From the IMG/VR virus record IMGVR_UViG_3300017971_000004, positions 1-64,000 of that record: a stretch of DNA of 64,000 nucleotides; one strand, given 5' to 3'. Both the position numbers and the translations under genes were made by a program. This document shows, in pieces, positions 5,405 to 62,110 of this stretch. Numbering within the stretch: position 1 is the stretch's first letter; every line of letters starts with the position of its first letter. This DNA is from a virus (lineage: Duplodnaviria > Heunggongvirae > Uroviricota > Caudoviricetes). The notes under the pieces were generated by a model. That model did no database searches and was not told where the DNA came from. It saw only the letters and a list, made by a program, of their open reading frames with translations.

Positions 5405-5444
5405 TTTCCCTTCTCCTTCCTAGAAGATCTTCTTCACCACCCTC

Positions 5445-5768
5445 CTACAGGATGTGGTGATGCGTCGTGTTCGCAGCGACCTCGACGAAAGGCCGTTTTT
5501 CCATGTGATCCGCGTAGTTGTGGTACGCGTGCGTAGGAACTCCTCCGGGATGGTGCTTGAGCGGCACCTTCGGCGGACGGTAGTTCAGCAGCGCCTGGTC
5601 CGCGATGGGATCGTCCTCGGTGCGAACGACCTCCTGATCCCGGATTACCAGCAACTTCTTGCCGGTCTTGGTCGGGACCTTCACCTTGAGAACAGTGTCC
5701 CCGCTGGCGTCCCGCTGAATCGAGGACGGAGTCTCCGACAGAAAAAACCTGAACTTACGCACCGTCAT
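5445..5768 (-). CDS. hypothetical protein (108 aa), start moved to internal ATG (MTVRK)
   Basis: Track ORF 5445..5873 has an Arg-rich unlikely N-terminus. ATG at 5768 overlaps the stop of the upstream gene (ATGA coupling). Confidence 0.4.
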   Translation of the reverse strand: MTVRKFRFFLSETPSSIQRDASGDTVLKVKVPTKTGKKLLVIRDQEVVRTEDDPIADQALLNYRPPKVPLKHHPGGVPTHAYHNYADHMEKRPFVEVAANTTHHHIL

Positions 5769-5772
5769 ATCG

Positions 5773-6450
5773 TCACCTCGTCGTGATCGTGGGCCGGAAA
5801 ACCATCGTGGTGGCGTTCCGGGCAAAACCAATCTCCTGTTGAACCGTCCAGCCAACCGGAGGCGTCGTCGCAAAACTTCCCGACGCCGCCAGAAAGTACG
5901 TAGCGCCGGGAGTCAGCGACCAGGCCCCGTTGGTGATTTCACTGCCGTAAGCGATGTCGCAGGTCGTGCCGCCCCCGTAGACGGAGATGACCATTCCCCG
6001 AGCCGCGCTGCCCACGACGGCATCCGCCGTGCTCACGGTATCGGCAGCGCTGATATAGACCAGATCTCCGACCGCCGTCCCCAGAGAGCAAGTGAATCCC
6101 GTCCCGATGAAGGCTACACCGCCCGAGACTCGAAGATCGTAGGTGACTCCCAGCTGGTCCGTAAACTTGATCGGATATCCGATGGCAGGTCCGGCAGAAG
6201 TATCGATCCAGAGAGTGGGCGCTCCAGGAGGACCCGGAGAGGACGCGTGACCGGTGGGGTCGAACTGGAGACCTCCGGTTCCAATGATCGGCAGATTGTC
6301 CAGATTGAGCTTCTGCTCCAAGGAGGTGATGGCGGAAGAGAGTGAATTCGGGTGGTTAGCGATGACCTCGTCCACGTTGTCGATCATCGCCGTCGAGAAA
6401 TTGTCGAAGGAGGTTGGATAGGTGCTCGGATACGGCCAGATCGTAGTCAT
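5773..6450 (-). CDS. hypothetical virion-module protein (225 aa)
   Basis: Minus-strand ORF inside the structural block, G/T/S-rich; promoter-like TGAAGTATACT element upstream (6480..6500). Confidence 0.5.
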   Translation of the reverse strand: MTTIWPYPSTYPTSFDNFSTAMIDNVDEVIANHPNSLSSAITSLEQKLNLDNLPIIGTGGLQFDPTGHASSPGPPGAPTLWIDTSAGPAIGYPIKFTDQLGVTYDLRVSGGVAFIGTGFTCSLGTAVGDLVYISAADTVSTADAVVGSAARGMVISVYGGGTTCDIAYGSEITNGAWSLTPGATYFLAASGSFATTPPVGWTVQQEIGFARNATTMVFRPTITTR

Positions 6451-6539
6451 CTCGGTAATCTGCTCCTGTCGACGTCATAGTATACTTCAGGAGCATTGCT
6501 CGTTTATAAAGATGAGGGGAGAAAACTGAAATCCGATAA

Positions 6540-7343
6540 TCAGCTGGCGAGCGCACCTACATCGAGCGGACCATCGTAGGGGAAAACTTCGCGGATGTTC
6601 CGATGGAAGTACTTGCCTTTGGACTCCGCGTTCAAGAGATCCGAAAAGATCTGCCCCGGAACATTGAAGTACCGGTAAAGAGTGCGCGGCGTATTTCGTT
6701 TGGGACGAAACGAGATATAGAGAATTTCCTCCTCCTCGTCGTAGCCCACCCCCTCCAGATTCGAAGATTCGACAGGATGCATGACAGGCATCTGAAAGGG
6801 TTCGATCGGTTCACCCGGAGGAATGGCTTCTGGTTCTCCTACCGGTGGAGGAACGTACTCCTCGAAGCGAGGGTACAGCTCATCGCTCTCCTCGATGTCC
6901 TCCTGAATATCTTCTTCGACAGTGGGAACTTCTTCCGGGATTGGACCTGGGGGAGCTTCGGGAGGTGGTTCGAAAACATCGTATTCCTCTTCAATGAAGT
7001 CCTCGGTCTCCTCCTCGCCCCAGCCGGTCCACTCCTTGATCTTGCGCTTGAGATTGTCCCACCAGCCGGCATTGCGTCGGAGTGCGGCCCGGACGATTCG
7101 GTCCTCGATGAAGGGATGGGGATCGAGCGGCTCGAAAGATTCCTTGCCGAAGAACCTATCGACGGCGGCGGAGCGGATTCCGGTCCGGGTGCCGATATCC
7201 AGCTCGACGAGCGCCATCGTGAAGGGATAGTGCTCCTCCTCAGAGAGCTGGGACAGGAGATCCTCGTAGTGTTGCTGGCGCAAGATTCTTTCCGCTCCGG
7301 CAGATATCTTGGCCGACTCGATTGCTTCATCCAGCGTGATCAT
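6540..7343 (-). CDS. KTSC-domain protein with acidic/Pro-rich linker
   Basis: C-terminus VESSNLEGVGYDEEEEILYISF...YRYFNVPGQIFSDLLNAESKGKYFHRNI matches the KTSC (Lys-tRNA-synthetase C-terminal-like) domain pattern. The N-terminus of the track ORF (MPLRDCLGRGC...) is Arg/Cys-rich junk, so start moved to ATG 7343 (MITLDEA). Confidence 0.55.
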   Translation of the reverse strand: MITLDEAIESAKISAGAERILRQQHYEDLLSQLSEEEHYPFTMALVELDIGTRTGIRSAAVDRFFGKESFEPLDPHPFIEDRIVRAALRRNAGWWDNLKRKIKEWTGWGEEETEDFIEEEYDVFEPPPEAPPGPIPEEVPTVEEDIQEDIEESDELYPRFEEYVPPPVGEPEAIPPGEPIEPFQMPVMHPVESSNLEGVGYDEEEEILYISFRPKRNTPRTLYRYFNVPGQIFSDLLNAESKGKYFHRNIREVFPYDGPLDVGALAS

Positions 7344-25439: not shown

Positions 25440-25574
25440 GTTTCGAAACCCATTGACTTCATGTTACCCAACGAGCTATTTTGTAGCTTCAGTGCCAGCG
25501 AGATGGCTTCAAAATCTCGACTCCCGTACACATTCTCATCAGATACTCATAGTGTCCGAAAGTTCCGAAACGGA

Positions 25575-26132
25575 CTACTTTTTCTTCATGATCTCGTCAA
25601 GCTTGTCGGGCAGGAGAGGACGCTGCTGCACCGGAGGCGGCTCAGGAGCGGCCAGGAGCTGTTCCAAGGGGCTGGGAACAGATTTGGGCATCTTGGGCTC
25701 GGGGAGCATCTCCGAGACGTCCTCGGCGGCTCCCTCACCGTAGAAGTCATCGGCGTCACCGTCCCCATCTCCATCGGCAGCCGCCGGAAGTCCGAACAGC
25801 TCTTCCGGCGACATCAGCTCTCCCGATCCACTTCCGAAGCCACCACCCATCATGGGATAGCCCATGCCACCACCCCATTGGTTCCCGACATACATGAGCA
25901 GCAACGACTTCCGGAGGTTCTGTATCTCCCCGTAAAGCCGGGTTTCGCTCTGCTTCAAGGAATCGATTTCGGCCTGGAGGACCTCGTAGCTGGTTTCGGC
26001 CTTCTCCCCGCCATTGTCCAGCCATGCGACGAATCCCGGCGTTGAGAGGACGGCGACGATGATCGTAGCCACGGAACCGACAGTAAAGTGTTTTCCAGTA
26101 ACTTTTCCAGGCGGTTGCGACTCGGAGTTCAT
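25575..26132 (-). CDS. membrane-anchored Gly/Met-rich protein (185 aa)
   Basis: Start MNSESQ (ATG 26132, ATGA overlap); TM helix VGSVATIIVAVLSTPGFVAW; GGGMGYPMMGGGFGSGSG low-complexity region. Confidence 0.4.
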   Translation of the reverse strand: MNSESQPPGKVTGKHFTVGSVATIIVAVLSTPGFVAWLDNGGEKAETSYEVLQAEIDSLKQSETRLYGEIQNLRKSLLLMYVGNQWGGGMGYPMMGGGFGSGSGELMSPEELFGLPAAADGDGDGDADDFYGEGAAEDVSEMLPEPKMPKSVPSPLEQLLAAPEPPPVQQRPLLPDKLDEIMKKK

Positions 26133-57466: not shown

Positions 57467-58819
57467 TCAATCTTCCGTGAGCGCGGCCTCGACCTCGTCG
57501 AGCCTGAAACGTTGGAGACGGTCAGGACCCAGGTAGTGGACCGGAATGCTTCCTTGGTCCACCCACTTCTGTACCTTCTTCACGGTCGTCGAGAAGTGCT
57601 GTGCGATCGTTTCGATGTCAACAAACTTTCCCGGAGACACCGAAGGCGGAGCTGAAGAAGGTTCGTTCTCCGTCACCTCCTCCTGTTCCGGCTGCGAAGG
57701 AGGTTCAGACGGAACATCGAGGATCCGGATGATGGTTCTCCGATTCCTCCCCTTTCCGTTTTCGATCAACTTCGCGCCTCGCAGCTTTCGGAACACTCCG
57801 GTGACCGTGCTCAGGTGCAAACTCAACGCGGTGCCGAAGTCCGCAGCCCGGGTTGCAACGACATGAGAGGGGGACTTAGCTGCCTCCTTCCAGAGATAAA
57901 GCGCGACCTTGAGCACCGAGTCACCCCGAAGCTCCTGAACACGCTGGAACCACTCCCAAGGGAAGTCCTCGGCCCACTTGAAGTGATCGTCCGACAAAAC
58001 CGGAGGCACCTCCACCTGCTGCTCAGGAAGATCAACTTCTTTCGAGGGCGTCTTCTTTTTCGAAGATGCCTTTTTCGTAGGTACAGACGGTTCCTCGAAG
58101 GGAGCGATCTGGAGGTCCTGATCAGGATCCAACGCCTGCATGCGGATGAGATCCTGAGCCGCCTGGAAGTCGATTGCCACGGTCGACGATCTCCGAGAAG
58201 AGCGTCCGGGAATGTGCAACGACGCCGCGTAGTGCTTGGTATTCTTGAACTTCCCGTGAAAGGTGGGATAAAGAATCTTCACCGCATCCGCGACGTCCTG
58301 TAGAAGATACGGCTTCGCTTCGGGAAGGGTGTTGTCCGGCAGCAACTTGCACTTACTGATCGCCTTCTTCACATCTTCGACCTTGAAGAACGCGGTGGCG
58401 AAGTCAGGATCCAAAGGCCTGTGCCGCTCCCGAAGTCCGCAGTAGAACGCGAGATGGCAGACCATGTCCCGAGTGAGCTTCGTCTCTTGAAGCAGCTCCT
58501 TCAAAGGGAGCCAAGCCGTATCTTTGAGATCCGCGAGCCCGTACTTCTGGAGAACGGCGCTCAGATCTTGCGCCGAGATTTCCTGAACTTCGGGAAGCGT
58601 GTCAGGGGGGTAACCGTCTCCCGTCCCGGGGGGCGCAGCATCAGGCACAGGCGGCGTGACTGCTTCTCCGATCGGCTGCCCTATACCCAACGAAGGAGGA
58701 GCCTGTGCAGGAACAGGAGGGAGTTCCGCTTTCTGCTCCGGGTTATCCTGGGTGTTGTCACTCTCGGGGTTGTTCTGGTCTCGATTCTTTTCATCTTCGG
58801 ACATCTCGTACTCCTCCAT
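57467..58819 (-). CDS. DNA-binding protein with winged-helix and C-terminal excisionase-type HTH (450 aa)
   Basis: C-terminal FVDIETIAQHFSTTVKKVQKWVDQGSIPVHYLGPDRLQRFRLDEVEAAL (HTH_17-like); acidic/Pro-rich low-complexity N-terminus. Lies immediately downstream of the CRISPR array. Confidence 0.5.
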   Translation of the reverse strand: MEEYEMSEDEKNRDQNNPESDNTQDNPEQKAELPPVPAQAPPSLGIGQPIGEAVTPPVPDAAPPGTGDGYPPDTLPEVQEISAQDLSAVLQKYGLADLKDTAWLPLKELLQETKLTRDMVCHLAFYCGLRERHRPLDPDFATAFFKVEDVKKAISKCKLLPDNTLPEAKPYLLQDVADAVKILYPTFHGKFKNTKHYAASLHIPGRSSRRSSTVAIDFQAAQDLIRMQALDPDQDLQIAPFEEPSVPTKKASSKKKTPSKEVDLPEQQVEVPPVLSDDHFKWAEDFPWEWFQRVQELRGDSVLKVALYLWKEAAKSPSHVVATRAADFGTALSLHLSTVTGVFRKLRGAKLIENGKGRNRRTIIRILDVPSEPPSQPEQEEVTENEPSSAPPSVSPGKFVDIETIAQHFSTTVKKVQKWVDQGSIPVHYLGPDRLQRFRLDEVEAALTED

Positions 58820-58917
58820 GTCGTGGCTCGGTTGTTCTCCGTTCTCGACCTCGCGTACCTTCCTTGACCAGAGGAAGGGGAGTAGCTAGTTCCCGCGAAG
58901 TTCTCCTTTTCCACAAA

Positions 58918-58952
58918 CTCTTTCTCAACATACAGTGAACAGATCTCTCGAT
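58918..58952. repeat. left 35-bp inverted repeat flanking the CRISPR array
   Basis: ctctttctcaacatacagtgaacagatctctcgat; 32/35 identical to the reverse complement of 59866..59900. Confidence 0.8.
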
Positions 58953-58967
58953 GTCATGGACCGTGCT

Positions 58968-59730
58968 GTCGAGACTTCTAACCCGTCTCGCAGGGATTGA
59001 AGGATCGAACTCCCAAGATCTGGAGGCCCGCGATGCCGAAGTCGAGACTTCTAACCCGTCTCGCAGGGATTGAAGGGCGGTGCGGGTCCTATCATCGCTA
59101 CTTGGGACATCGGTGTCGAGACTTCTAACCCGTCTCGCAGGGATTGAAGGAAATGGAGTCCATCGAACCCAACATCGTCGAAATGTCGAGACTTCTAACC
59201 CGTCTCGCAGGGATTGAAGGTAACTAGACTGAGAATAGCTTGGTTATGTGAAATGCGTCGAGACTTCTAACCCGTCTCGCAGGGATTGAAGAAACGTGTT
59301 GAAAACGTGCTACGAGCCGGACAACATGTCGAGACTTCTAACCCGTCTCGCAGGGATTGAAGGGAAGCTACCGTCGCCTACGCGACCAGCGAGCCCATCT
59401 GTCGAGACTTCTAACCCGTCTCGCAGGGATTGAAGGATCGATAGCCGGGCGGCGCACGCCTCCGTTGCGCTGTCGAGACTTCTAACCCGTCTCGCAGGGA
59501 TTGAAGGCGGAGCGATCTCGCCGGGCAGTTCGAGCCACAACTCCGGGGGTCGAGACTTCTAACCCGTCTCGCAGGGATTGAAGGCGGTTTTCCGCCTCGG
59601 TACCCGAGGTCGGATCAAGATGTCGAGACTTCTAACCCGTCTCGCAGGGATTGAAGGGAGTGAAAAGATCGACGCCCTCTCGTGATGCTGCTTCGTCGAG
59701 ACTTCTAACCCGTCTCGCAGGGATTGAAGG
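58968..59730 (-). CRISPR. CRISPR array, 11 x 36-bp repeats, 10 spacers (34-41 bp)
   Basis: Plus-strand repeat GTCGAGACTTCTAACCCGTCTCGCAGGGATTGAAGG at 58968, 59041, 59115, 59185, 59257, 59328, 59401, 59472, 59549, 59622, 59695. All are identical except repeat 5, whose last G is A. Repeat contains a 6-bp hairpin CGAGAC/GTCTCG. Strand call is minus because the hairpin then sits at the 3' end of the repeat next to the spacer, and the array is co-directional with the cas12-like gene. Confidence 0.9.
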
Positions 59731-59865
59731 GGCGCGTTCCGCGACTTCAATGATCGCGGCGAGATAACCACCCGATTTCGAGCGGTCCGTTTTTCGCTCG
59801 AACGCGCTCCCGATTTTTTCAATCATTTCGAACGATGAACTCCTCCACCGATCCACCGCTCGAAA

Positions 59866-59900
59866 ATCGAGAGATCTGTTCACTGCATGTTGTCAAAGAG
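59866..59900. repeat. right 35-bp inverted repeat flanking the CRISPR array
   Basis: atcgagagatctgttcactgcatgttgtcaaagag; ends 11 nt before the cas12-like stop codon. Confidence 0.8.
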
Positions 59901-59911
59901 CTTTCGAACTT

Positions 59912-62110
59912 CTAAGACTCTAGAGGAGCCGGGCCTTCGCCGTTCCGCTCCTCTTCTTCCTTTTTCCGCTTCCGAACGACTTTCTTCCCCTTGTTCCGGT
60001 TCTTCTGAGCGTCCGACATCTCCCGCACGAGCACGCTGCCATCGGCTATCTTGACGATCTTGTTCTCTCGGTACAGCCGCATCATGTTCCGGGCCGCGTT
60101 CGCGTCCTGGTCCCAGGTGCGACCGCACTTCTCGCAGGTGTGCTCCACCTTCGGAATCGGGTCCCAGGGCGCATCGTGCCCGCAGTCGAAGCAGCGCTGG
60201 GTGGTCATGGCCGGGTTCACCCAGACGACCGTGCCGCCACGCGAGAGGAACGCCTGGATGAGCGTCTCGCGGAACTCGGAGAGCGCCGCTTCTTTCTGCT
60301 GCCGCCGCGCCCGCCGGATCTCGACCTTGTCGCTTCCCGGAAGCTCATGCTTCTGCATCTTGCTCAGATCGATATTTTCGAGCACGAGGACCTTGAACTC
60401 CCGCGCCAGCGCAGAGTCCACGCACCGGTAGTGATCCTCGCGCTGCAACAGCGACTTGCGCCGCTGGCTCTCCTGCCACTGCCAGAGGTGCCGGTCGCCG
60501 CCTTCGAGACGCCGCGCCTCCTCGTCGTAGACGCCTCGCTGCCAGCGGTCCAGGATCTCGAAGCCCCGTTCGTCCCCCTTCCACCGCGACTCCCTCCAGA
60601 GCCGCAGCAGCCACGCGAACCGCTTGGGGGCCTCCCACTTGGCGATGCCCCGGGTCGACTCCCTGAACCACTTCGGCAGCGCGCTGCGCCGCGCCTTGAT
60701 CCACGCCCGAAGCTCGGCCAGCATTTCGTTCTGCTTCAGCTGCCGGGTCTGCTGGAGCGTTTCGACGCGCTGGAACCCGGCGACCACCTTCGACGACATG
60801 CACTGCTCGTGGCCCACCTCACCCTCGTCCGGGTTCTTAAGATAGGCGGCGTACTCTCGATCATCGATCAGGTACGCGATCCGGATTCGGGGCACCTCCA
60901 CCTCCTGCTTCCGCAGCCCCCGCTTCTTCCGCTTCCTACCCATCTCCACCGTCTCGGTCCCTCGCTTGCGCCAACCGATATCGACGGCCACGACCCCGCG
61001 CCCCGTCCCGTAGTCCTTGTGACAATCCCCCGAATCCACCTCCAGATGGAGGTGCAACGTCCACCGGAGCCGGGTGGTGATCTTCTCCCGCTTCACGACC
61101 GCCCACTTGATGCGCGCCTTCGGAGGCAGCGGACGATGCATGATCACTGGGAACTCCGCCCAGATGGGATCACGACCGCTCTTTCCGCCGCTGCCGACCC
61201 GGATTCGAGCGATGCCGCGTCGACGTATCCTCCGATGCCGGAGCACCTCCTCCCCCATCTCGGGCTCCATGTCCAGCTGGAACATGGTGTTCTGGCAGTT
61301 CAGGACGCGCTCGACGGAATCCCCCTTCTGGAGTTCGACGCCGAAGATCACCTCATCATCGAGACTCTTGAACTTGGGGTCTCGCTCGACCCAGATGCCC
61401 TTCTCCTCGTTCCACTTCCAGAGGCTGTCCCTCAGCGACATCCGAGAAGCCTCCCGCGCCCTGTTCACCAGGAGATAGGTCCCCCAGTAGAGCTTCCCCA
61501 GCTCCTCGTCCGTCTCGGTCACCTTCTCGTAGGTTCCATCCTTGAATTGCACGTAGGCTTCGTGCAACTCCTGCTTCTCCCGCTGCTGGGCTTCCGCGCG
61601 CCGAGCCTTCAACTCGTCGCTTAACTCCACCTTCTTCCTCGGCTCCTCCTTCCCCGGCTCGTCGTCCGACTCGGAACCGTTCTTCAACTCCCGCAGCTTT
61701 GCCCACGCCTCGTTCTTGAGATCGCGCACCTCCCGGAGACGCATCCGCTCCTGCGGGGTGTCGGACCGGGATCGAGACCTCTTGCGCTTCGTCCTGAGAT
61801 CCTCCTGCATCTCCCGGAGGAGCTTTTCGAGACGCTTGACCTCGGTGAAGGCTTCCCGCATCTCGTCGCTCGCCCCCATCAGGTCCAGAGTGTGCTGCTG
61901 GTAGATTTCCCGAAGAGTCGCCCGCAGACGACGCTCCGCCTCCACACACTGGTTGTTGTACCGCTGCGACAGGACGATCTGCTTCTCCACCAGTTCGGCG
62001 TTCTTCGTCGGACCGAACGGCAGCCCATACACATAGGCGAGCTGGGGACCTCGGACCCTCGGCTTGCCCGGCTTCTTCTTCCGTTTCGTCTTCGATGTCT
62101 TGCGCGTCAT
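59912..62110 (-). CDS. cas12: Cas12-family (TnpB-derived) type V CRISPR effector candidate (732 aa)
   Basis: RuvC-I GVVAVDIGWRKRG; RuvC-II VLVLENIDLSKMQK; Zn ribbon CFDCGHDAPW...HTCEKCGRT followed by RuvC-III WDQDANAARNMM (compare ISDra2 TnpB AGVDVGI / IGTEHLKPDNM / CHDCG...CPNCGETHDRDENAALNI). N-terminal TnpB-like segment QLAYVYGLPFGPTKNAELVEKQIVLSQRYNNQC. A K/R/E-rich coiled-coil insertion of ~300 aa gives Cas12 size. Directly abuts the CRISPR array. GGGAGA RBS plus the CTTGTATATTAAC motif upstream. Confidence 0.75.
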   Translation of the reverse strand: MTRKTSKTKRKKKPGKPRVRGPQLAYVYGLPFGPTKNAELVEKQIVLSQRYNNQCVEAERRLRATLREIYQQHTLDLMGASDEMREAFTEVKRLEKLLREMQEDLRTKRKRSRSRSDTPQERMRLREVRDLKNEAWAKLRELKNGSESDDEPGKEEPRKKVELSDELKARRAEAQQREKQELHEAYVQFKDGTYEKVTETDEELGKLYWGTYLLVNRAREASRMSLRDSLWKWNEEKGIWVERDPKFKSLDDEVIFGVELQKGDSVERVLNCQNTMFQLDMEPEMGEEVLRHRRIRRRGIARIRVGSGGKSGRDPIWAEFPVIMHRPLPPKARIKWAVVKREKITTRLRWTLHLHLEVDSGDCHKDYGTGRGVVAVDIGWRKRGTETVEMGRKRKKRGLRKQEVEVPRIRIAYLIDDREYAAYLKNPDEGEVGHEQCMSSKVVAGFQRVETLQQTRQLKQNEMLAELRAWIKARRSALPKWFRESTRGIAKWEAPKRFAWLLRLWRESRWKGDERGFEILDRWQRGVYDEEARRLEGGDRHLWQWQESQRRKSLLQREDHYRCVDSALAREFKVLVLENIDLSKMQKHELPGSDKVEIRRARRQQKEAALSEFRETLIQAFLSRGGTVVWVNPAMTTQRCFDCGHDAPWDPIPKVEHTCEKCGRTWDQDANAARNMMRLYRENKIVKIADGSVLVREMSDAQKNRNKGKKVVRKRKKEEEERNGEGPAPLES

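Follow-up and report, generated by a model that had tools for sequence, protein, structure and literature searches.

What kind of CRISPR system does a phage carry when an array stands beside a single large effector gene, and from which strand is that array read? The question is raised by positions 58968–59730 of a 64,000-nt stretch of viral DNA (Caudoviricetes; positions 1 to 64,000 of IMG/VR record IMGVR_UViG_3300017971_000004; hereafter the window), where an array of eleven repeats lies next to the gene for a 732-amino-acid protein. A first, sequence-only reading had predicted transcription of CRISPR RNAs (crRNAs) from the minus strand, had likened the repeat to those of Cas12a and CasPhi, and had allowed for a leader RNA or an RNA resembling a trans-activating CRISPR RNA (tracrRNA) between gene and array. 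Our analysis shows the array to be genuine; it very probably belongs to a type V-M (Cas12m) system that a phage carries, and is read from the minus strand. Related loci, many of them from IMG/VR, are referred to below by L-numbers.

The array and its effector

Eleven copies of a 36-nt repeat (GTCGAGACTTCTAACCCGTCTCGCAGGGATTGAAGG on the plus strand), spaced 70–77 nt apart, start at positions 58968, 59041, 59115, 59185, 59257, 59328, 59401, 59472, 59549, 59622 and 59695, and enclose ten spacers of 37, 38, 34, 36, 35, 37, 35, 41, 37 and 37 nt. In the crRNA sense, that is on the minus strand, the repeat reads CCUUCAAUCCCUGCGAGACGGGUUAGAAGUCUCGAC. Repeat mapping bore out the earlier count of ten identical copies in eleven: the sole variant, at 59257–59292, carries A for G at 59292, so that in the crRNA sense (minus strand) its first base is U and not C. 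The 6-bp stem CGAGAC/GTCTCG is likewise present, and in minus-strand RNA it ends 2 nt ahead of the spacer. The spacers are as heterogeneous as had been described (34–41 nt, with GC fractions of 0.36–0.71), and spacer 4 (59221–59256) is indeed AT-rich, its GC content of 36% being the lowest of the ten, against 59.5% for the window. Many V-M arrays, on phages as well as plasmids, have strongly heterogeneous repeats whose fold is kept through compensatory changes (L002 6840–9290, L007 7667–8366, L009 5627–7200, L010 4125–4665); the homogeneous window array is an exception.

The 732-amino-acid open reading frame (ORF; 59912–62110, minus strand) sits directly upstream of the array in the minus direction. 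In a phmmer search of PDB its top match was the Cas12m structure 23vw_A (E 3.5e-47), followed by four further Cas12m entries, while structures of TnpB, Cas12f and CasPhi matched only the C-terminus, at E 1e-5 or worse. The best PADLOC model was Cas12u1 (E 3.1e-76; residues 24–680 against profile positions 4–530 of 533), Cas12u1 and V-U1 being the former names of Cas12m and type V-M. Pfam family PF07282 was matched with an E-value of 1.1e-13. Alignment with the Ms, Mk and Pp Cas12m proteins and with phage relatives located the RuvC motifs VAVDIGW, LVLEN and WDQDANAARN, which supply a D-E-D triad, and a C-terminal zinc-ribbon TNB domain, a hallmark of the TnpB/Cas12 superfamily. Over its whole length the protein is more closely homologous to Cas12m than to other Cas12 subtypes or TnpB; homology to Cas12j amounts to a match of residues 574–716 to Cas_phi3, at E 1.5e-4. 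By sequence, then, the effector is of the Cas12m/V-U1 type, neither CasPhi nor Cas12a. Its nearest relative found (L014/L017) is 47% identical, and contigs as long as 188,555 bp encode an identical protein.

No gene for Cas1, Cas2, Cas4 or a class 1 Cas protein was detected among the 85 ORFs of the window, which covers 64 kb of a genome of roughly 188 kb (Pfam, E <= 1e-5), nor was any Cas6 or type I/III protein; adaptation and class 1 Cas families were also absent from the 25 of 34 PADLOC families listed for the window.

The repeat folds as a Cas12m crRNA handle

On the minus strand the repeat follows the plan CAAU-CCC-UG-[CGAGAC]-GGG-loop-[GUCUCG]-AC, in which the stem is accompanied by a pseudoknot: CCC at positions 9–11 pairs with GGG at positions 20–22, inside the stem loop. 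The sequence-only reading had overlooked this CCC/GGG pairing, and its comparison with Cas12a and CasPhi must be replaced, since effector and repeat are both of the Cas12m (V-M) kind. Eight Cas12m crRNAs have been determined by sequencing the RNA bound to the protein, and the minus-strand repeat aligns collinearly with their repeat portions (that of Mk being UUACAAACCCUGCUCAUUGGGUUGGUUAAUGAGAC; Bigelyte 2024, PMC11013384, Table S5); the ApCas12m repeat of that study is identical to the repeat of IMG/VR locus L043. The window repeat also fits the layout of the 36-nt MmCas12m2 scaffold, in which a helix joins nucleotides -22 to -17 to nucleotides -8 to -3 and A(-2) and C(-1) come next (Omura 2023, PMC10442227), the terminal AC abutting the guide. 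The window thus has a repeat of about 36 nt, a handle of stem plus pseudoknot, and 2 nt (AC) before the guide.

Covariation was assessed in two sets. Among 43 repeats from the window, two phage relatives and four published systems, 95% of the pair cells form standard pairs, with 58 double changes, a figure that none of 500 shuffles reached. In the second set, with one repeat from each of 22 related loci, 99% of the cells are paired and compensatory changes occur at all nine pairs, as compared with 29–42% pairing in slid controls. The stem's 100% pairing in this set is partly circular, because the stem belonged to the criterion by which repeats were selected; the pseudoknot helix, which did not, is 97% paired across the 22 loci and shows compensatory changes at each of its three pairs.

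Direction of the array

Five independent lines of evidence agree in placing the array on the minus strand, as had been predicted: homology of the repeat to Cas12m crRNAs, covariation, strand asymmetry of the pairing, synteny across the family, and polarity in relatives. The asymmetry lies in the 43-repeat alignment, where 27 cells read as G·U in the gene-sense strand against 4 as A·C. A covariance model built from the 22 V-M repeats recognised all 11 window copies at 36.7–37.3 bits, on the minus strand only.

For synteny, 36 IMG/VR loci encoding relatives of the effector were scanned for arrays by structural criteria applied equally to both strands. Arrays turned up in 23 of the 36, always downstream of the effector gene and running in its direction, never opposite; the same arrangement holds in L002, L007, Virus Rctr197k and the Ms, Mk and Pp plasmids. 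The window conforms to it, the effector gene at 59912–62110 (-) lying directly upstream of an adjacent array that runs from 59730 to 58968, so that the co-directionality noted earlier is upheld.

Polarity could be read from the closest relatives (L017/L014, 47% identity), whose repeat is CTTACAATACCTGCGAGACGGTTTAGAAGTCTCGAC. The L017 array (5587–6792) has a truncated, degenerate repeat at its gene-distal end, and L051, a metagenomic variant with the leader and repeat of L017, differs from it at all nine leader-proximal spacers and shares one distal spacer. From the distal truncated repeat and the leader-end differences it follows that spacers enter at the gene-adjacent end. In L054 the part of the array that lay between two copies of a single spacer has been deleted. 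Spacer turnover in L017, L051 and L054 points to ongoing acquisition, with no adaptation genes in the 8 kb seen, and leads to the question of who inserts the spacers.

A conserved leader and the absence of an anti-repeat

The interval between effector gene and array includes, at 59731–59865 (minus strand), a segment that shares with the L017 leader the blocks TCGAAA..ATTGAA.AAAT, GGACCGCTCGAAATC and GCGCC, directly ahead of repeat 1. On this homology we regard 59731–59865 as a conserved leader and not a tracrRNA. The small hairpins reported there do exist, and a leader had been one of the two roles proposed for the segment; its echo of the repeat's CTTCAAT, however, is at chance level (local alignment P=0.07 against 1000 shuffles), and the stability of the leader RNA is unremarkable (z -1.4). 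Degenerate inverted repeats in the leader were considered and rejected (P=0.07), and Rfam gave no match in 58800–60000.

The tracrRNA half of the proposal did not survive. When the repeat was paired with either flank on either strand, as the sequence-only reading had suggested for 59731–59865, the duplex energies were no better than those of dinucleotide shuffles (0.38–0.52 of the shuffles did at least as well), and no anti-repeat was found. The longest exact complements of the repeat within the window are 11–12 nt long and lie tens of kilobases away. At the level of sequence, in flanks and window, the locus therefore has the single-RNA character of its family: Cas12m proteins carry one crRNA of 50–60 nt, process their own precursor, and have no tracrRNA in their bound RNA.

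Spacer targets

The search for protospacers that had been proposed was run on phage, plasmid, IMG/VR, GTDB, window and locus collections and returned none, and hence nothing that would bear on the lower-GC target suggested for spacer 4. The whole array had no blastn match among GenBank phages and only chance-level matches (E >= 0.7) among PLSDB plasmids; exact 22–24-mers of spacers 1, 4, 9 and 10 were not found in IMG/VR, nor those of spacer 7 in GTDB genomes; and no protospacer was present in the window itself or in 55 fetched loci. The exact repeat had no match in IMG/VR and JGI metagenomes, and a degenerate repeat query had none in GTDB genomes. The authors describing a myxophage Cas12m likewise found no identifiable targets (bioRxiv 10.64898/2026.09.14.751636).

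Proposed mechanism and alternative explanations

Transcription would start on the minus strand at the leader side beside cas12m, where the box described below lies, and proceed towards 58968. Each repeat would fold as a Cas12m handle, with the 6-bp stem CGAGAC/GUCUCG, the 3-bp CCC/GGG pseudoknot and the terminal AC at the guide. By extrapolation from characterised family members, we infer that Cas12m itself would cut a few nucleotides into the repeat and trim the spacer to about 17–20 nt, giving a crRNA of about 50 nt with no tracrRNA; mature RNAs of the Cas12m family comprise about 33 nt of repeat and about 17 nt of guide. The complex would then bind double-stranded DNA, whether from competing phages, from plasmids or from the host, where the target is flanked by a protospacer-adjacent motif (PAM), and interference would come mainly from a block of transcription or replication, not from cutting.

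Several points weigh against this account. The effector, 732 residues long and bearing insertions, shares no more than 47% identity with any relative found, so that the behaviour of Cas12m proteins of about 600 amino acids, extrapolated here, may not transfer to it; with its intact D-E-D RuvC triad it might cleave. None of the spacers had a protospacer in the collections searched, which bears on both activity and PAM. The strand is called from homology and from relatives, because the window's own repeats have no G·U pair; transcription of the array is a prediction; and its promoter was not located, since no convincing -10 element accompanies either the leader or the TTGACA box.

That the effector is a true nuclease which cuts its targets, and not a silencer that only binds them, is unlikely. 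Its RuvC residues D, E and D are conserved, and the authors of the MmCas12m2 structure considered that D-E-D clades might hydrolyse DNA (PMC10442227); against this, four D-E-D Cas12m variants tested biochemically bound double-stranded DNA and did not cut it, the window protein being a divergent one, and restoring D-E-D in MmCas12m2 did not restore cleavage (PMC10442227). It is less probable still that the array is an inactive relic or decoy, which the phage keeps but has ceased to transcribe or use. Such a relic would account for the missing targets and the lack of adaptation genes in the window, and in a second assembly with an identical effector one repeat stands between the same flanking arms. 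Ten of the eleven window repeats are identical, however, where arrays of relatives are visibly degenerate; the ORF of the effector is intact; a relative of just 47% effector identity has kept the leader; and in sister arrays the spacers nearest the leader have turned over.

Two further alternatives concern the RNA, and both are highly improbable. One holds that a tracrRNA-like partner is needed, encoded in 59731–59865 or elsewhere, as in types V-B, V-E, V-F and V-K. Two 7-nt leader stretches (GAUUGAA and AUUGAAG) are able to base-pair with the repeat's 5' end, and the minimum-energy fold includes one of these two pairings. Yet duplex energies between repeat and flank equal those of shuffles for both flanks and both strands, the repeat segment concerned is disordered in the MmCas12m2 structure (PMC10442227), its first 2–3 nt are cut off in PmCas12m, and the RNA bound by Cas12m contains no tracrRNA. 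The other would have the array read from the plus strand and processed like type I/III arrays: the plus-strand repeat ends in ATTGAAGG (..GGGATTGAAGG), similar to the 8-nt 5' handle motif seen in repeats that Cas6 processes, and taken alone it folds about equally well (-9.0 kcal/mol, against -8.7 for the minus strand). But ATTGAAG is the complement of a 5' segment conserved in V-M repeats (CUUCAAU / UUGCAAU / UGUCAAC), the G·U pairs of relatives fall in the gene-sense strand (27 against 4), the 85 ORFs include no Cas6 or type I/III protein, and every related array is co-directional with the Cas12m gene. The class 1 Cas genes that would go with a Cas6-processed array came up neither in the Pfam scan of the window nor among the PADLOC families listed, and the strand evidence runs opposite to a read ending in ATTGAAA(N).

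An inverted repeat around leader and array

Leader and array are bracketed exactly by the arms of a 38-nt inverted repeat, complementary at 34 of 38 positions (89%) and present in the 64 kb as these two copies only. The proximal arm (59866–59903, minus strand) holds in its outer part the box CTCTTTGACAA (59890–59900) with a perfect TTGACA; the distal arm (58915–58952, plus strand) begins 15 nt past the last repeat, and there TTGACA reads TTCTCA. The inner 22 nt of the proximal arm are an insertion relative to L017, and no such bracket was found in L002, L014 or L017, which include the closest and next-closest relatives; the distal arm is on these grounds the derived inverted copy. In the 1092-nt transcript, the fold of minimum energy has the two arms paired with each other. 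Their duplex is more stable in minus-strand RNA (-61.4 kcal/mol) than in plus-strand RNA (-51.8), and both A/G differences between the arms become G·U pairs in the minus-strand transcript. The bracket may serve as a processing or insulating stem or as a switch for DNA inversion, or it may be a neutral scar. An origin as the ends of a mobile element was rejected, given that the leader between the arms has its homologue in L017, which lacks arms, and the outer arm is the ancestral box. The literature was searched for arrays with inverted repeats on either side, and nothing relevant came up.

The second assembly (L001, 6160–6440; SRR6963591) encodes the identical 732-amino-acid protein and has the same arms and leader, with one repeat and no spacers; this one-repeat state could be a true allele that has collapsed, or an artefact of k-mer assembly.

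The box, with the consensus CT[C/A]TTTGACAA, occurs once per locus, directly after the effector stop codon, in the window (59890–59900, minus strand), L001, L002 (6809–6819), L007 (7651–7661), L009 (~5603–5613), L014 and L017 (~5440–5450), with a variant in L003; none of the close phage relatives examined lacks it. It is kept among phage-borne loci whose effectors are just 27–47% identical, but the plasmid loci of Ms, Mk and Pp do not have it. The idea that it is a classical sigma-70 promoter was rejected: no locus has a -10 element at 16–18 nt.

A stand-alone crRNA-like unit

Outside the array, the covariance model gave one strong match in the window, a solitary V-M-type repeat (GCTTCAGTGCCAGCGAGATGGCTTCAAAATCTCGAC) at 25486–25521 on the plus strand (34 bits, E 2e-6), 34 kb from the array and on the strand opposite to its flanking genes. 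It has the stem CGAGAT/ATCTCG, a GCC/GGC pseudoknot and a terminal GAC. A sigma-70-like promoter (TTGACT, 18 nt, TATTTT; 25453–25482, plus strand; one site found against 0.1 expected) ends 3 nt ahead of the repeat, which is followed at 25522–25587 (plus strand) by a guide-like 30 nt (TCCCGTACACATTCTCATCAGATACTCATA), then a hairpin and a T-run. The motif TCGAAA-N3-5-TTGA occurs four times in the window against 0.38 expected (25443, 59819, 59893, 58032), and three of the four copies (25443, 59819, 59893) precede a crRNA unit, on the strand from which that unit is read. The stretch ahead of the solitary repeat, promoter included, aligns with the box region 3' of cas12m (P=0.004), which suggests that the box is a -35 element.

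Relatives of the site were identified by homology search with the adjacent ORFs. Those whose neighbouring genes are 81% and 60% identical keep the downstream sequence without the ~80 nt of promoter and repeat, which are missing from all of L056–L060; the guide is accordingly native flanking DNA, an intergenic sequence common to L056, L057 and L059. In the uninserted relatives the guide match lies just upstream of a conserved 118-amino-acid gene and is flanked by CTC or TTT, whereas in the window phage its flank is the repeat's own GAC. No target of the guide beyond chance level (13/17) was found in the window, and none in IMG/VR. The unit was seen in the window only, in a model search that took in L001 and L056–L060; the ~8-kb loci of Cas12m relatives were not scanned.

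We put forward, as a possible but doubtful reading, that this Cas12m works with two unconventional RNA arrangements, a delocalised crRNA gene at 25453–25587 and an array precursor bracketed by a 38-bp long-range stem. In the first, ~80 nt of promoter and repeat would have been inserted beside native intergenic sequence and turned it into a guide. Because the guide began as native sequence, it would match only sibling phages that lack the insertion, in the 5' untranslated region of the 118-amino-acid gene. The CTC or TTT flank of the uninserted siblings would fit the YTN PAM of PmCas12m, whereas the GAC flank of the phage's own copy differs. The empty-site logic of TnpB might in this way be reused for competition between phages, and an uninserted sibling allele should be recognisable as TCCCGTACACATTCTCATCA without the repeat. 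In the second arrangement, the stem might excise or insulate the pre-crRNA from a polycistronic transcript, or might allow inversion of the cassette at the DNA level.

Delocalised crRNAs are known from type V-K CRISPR-associated transposons, and comparable arrangements include virus-borne mini-arrays, solitary repeat units and the omega-RNA of TnpB. Virus-borne mini-arrays have been reviewed (PMC11656645). Like these, the unit at 25453–25587 consists of one repeat and one guide away from the array; as with TnpB, its guide is the DNA flanking an inserted element and matches uninserted copies of the site. Unlike them, it has a sigma-70-like promoter of its own, belongs to a phage V-M system, and comes with no transposase or transposon ends. 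If expressed, it would be a natural single-guide arrangement joining TnpB-style flank targeting with CRISPR. As judged from sequence, bracket and delocalised unit are candidates for variant biology.

Comparison with known systems

The characterised V-M systems are those of MmCas12m2, GoCas12m, MsCas12m, MkCas12m, PpCas12m and PmCas12m (Wu 2022; PMC10442227; PMC11013384; bioRxiv 10.64898/2026.03.26.714355). The window shares with them the effector family, a 36-nt repeat with 6-bp stem, 9-nt loop, 3–4-bp pseudoknot and terminal AC, a downstream co-directional array, and the lack of a tracrRNA and of nearby adaptation genes. It departs from them in the size of its effector (732 as against ~577–664 amino acids), which has basic tails at both termini and internal insertions and is at most 30% identical to the characterised proteins; in being carried by a phage and not a plasmid; in repeats that are homogeneous where the Ms array is degenerate; and in the long leader, inverted-repeat bracket and TTGACAA box, all absent from the Ms, Mk and Pp loci. 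Matching type V-M in every feature that sequence allows to be tested, the array is a divergent addition to that type.

Its closest company is among phage-borne Cas12m loci, namely MvCas12m of the MV-1 myxophage, Virus Rctr197k (KX853510) and 37 IMG/VR loci, where cas12m and an adjacent co-directional array likewise lie in a large phage. These loci have in common the absence of cas1, cas2 and cas4 and of identifiable targets, many encode a D-E-D triad, and the box is shared with L002, L007, L009, L014 and L017. The window differs from these relatives in that the closest (L014/L017) are 47% identical, and L014, L017 and L002 have no bracket. With CasPhi (Cas12j) and Cas12a it shares a single effector, a lack of tracrRNA, a 3' repeat hairpin by the guide and, as predicted here, a self-processed precursor; yet the protein similarity is confined to the C-terminal RuvC/zinc-ribbon region (E 1.5e-4 for Cas_phi3 against 3.5e-47 for Cas12m), and the handle, a stem with pseudoknot, is of the TnpB/Cas12m type, unlike those of CasPhi and Cas12a.

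Cas12m-like genes are present in at least 37 IMG/VR viral contigs (L014–L050 included) and in the GenBank record of Virus Rctr197k, deposited in 2016, where the gene is annotated as 'similar to transposase' and accompanied by a CRISPR feature (KX853510.1, 110803–114219). A 2026 preprint called its myxophage Cas12m the first phage case (bioRxiv 10.64898/2026.09.14.751636), a claim contradicted by the IMG/VR loci and the 2016 Rctr197k record; a 2024 review also mentions prophage cases. Cas12m systems are thus common in large phages. With family (V-M) and strand fixed, a crRNA for expression would consist of a handle of about 33 nt ending in GUCUCGAC, followed by the guide.

Other genes in the window

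Genes for a large terminase, tail fibre, baseplate wedge protein, helicase and DHH phosphoesterase mark the window as a phage genome; it also encodes two tRNAs, and most of its genes are on the minus strand. Just downstream of the array, a 450-amino-acid gene (57467–58819, minus strand) has weak Crp-like and HTH_17 helix-turn-helix matches, and its product could be a DNA-binding regulator beside the CRISPR locus. Single ORFs elsewhere match a LexA DNA-binding domain, ThyX and KTSC, and others match the shoulder and repeat domains of the major vault protein (E 3e-26) and ARPP-1/ARPP-2; vault-like and ARPP proteins are unusual phage cargo.

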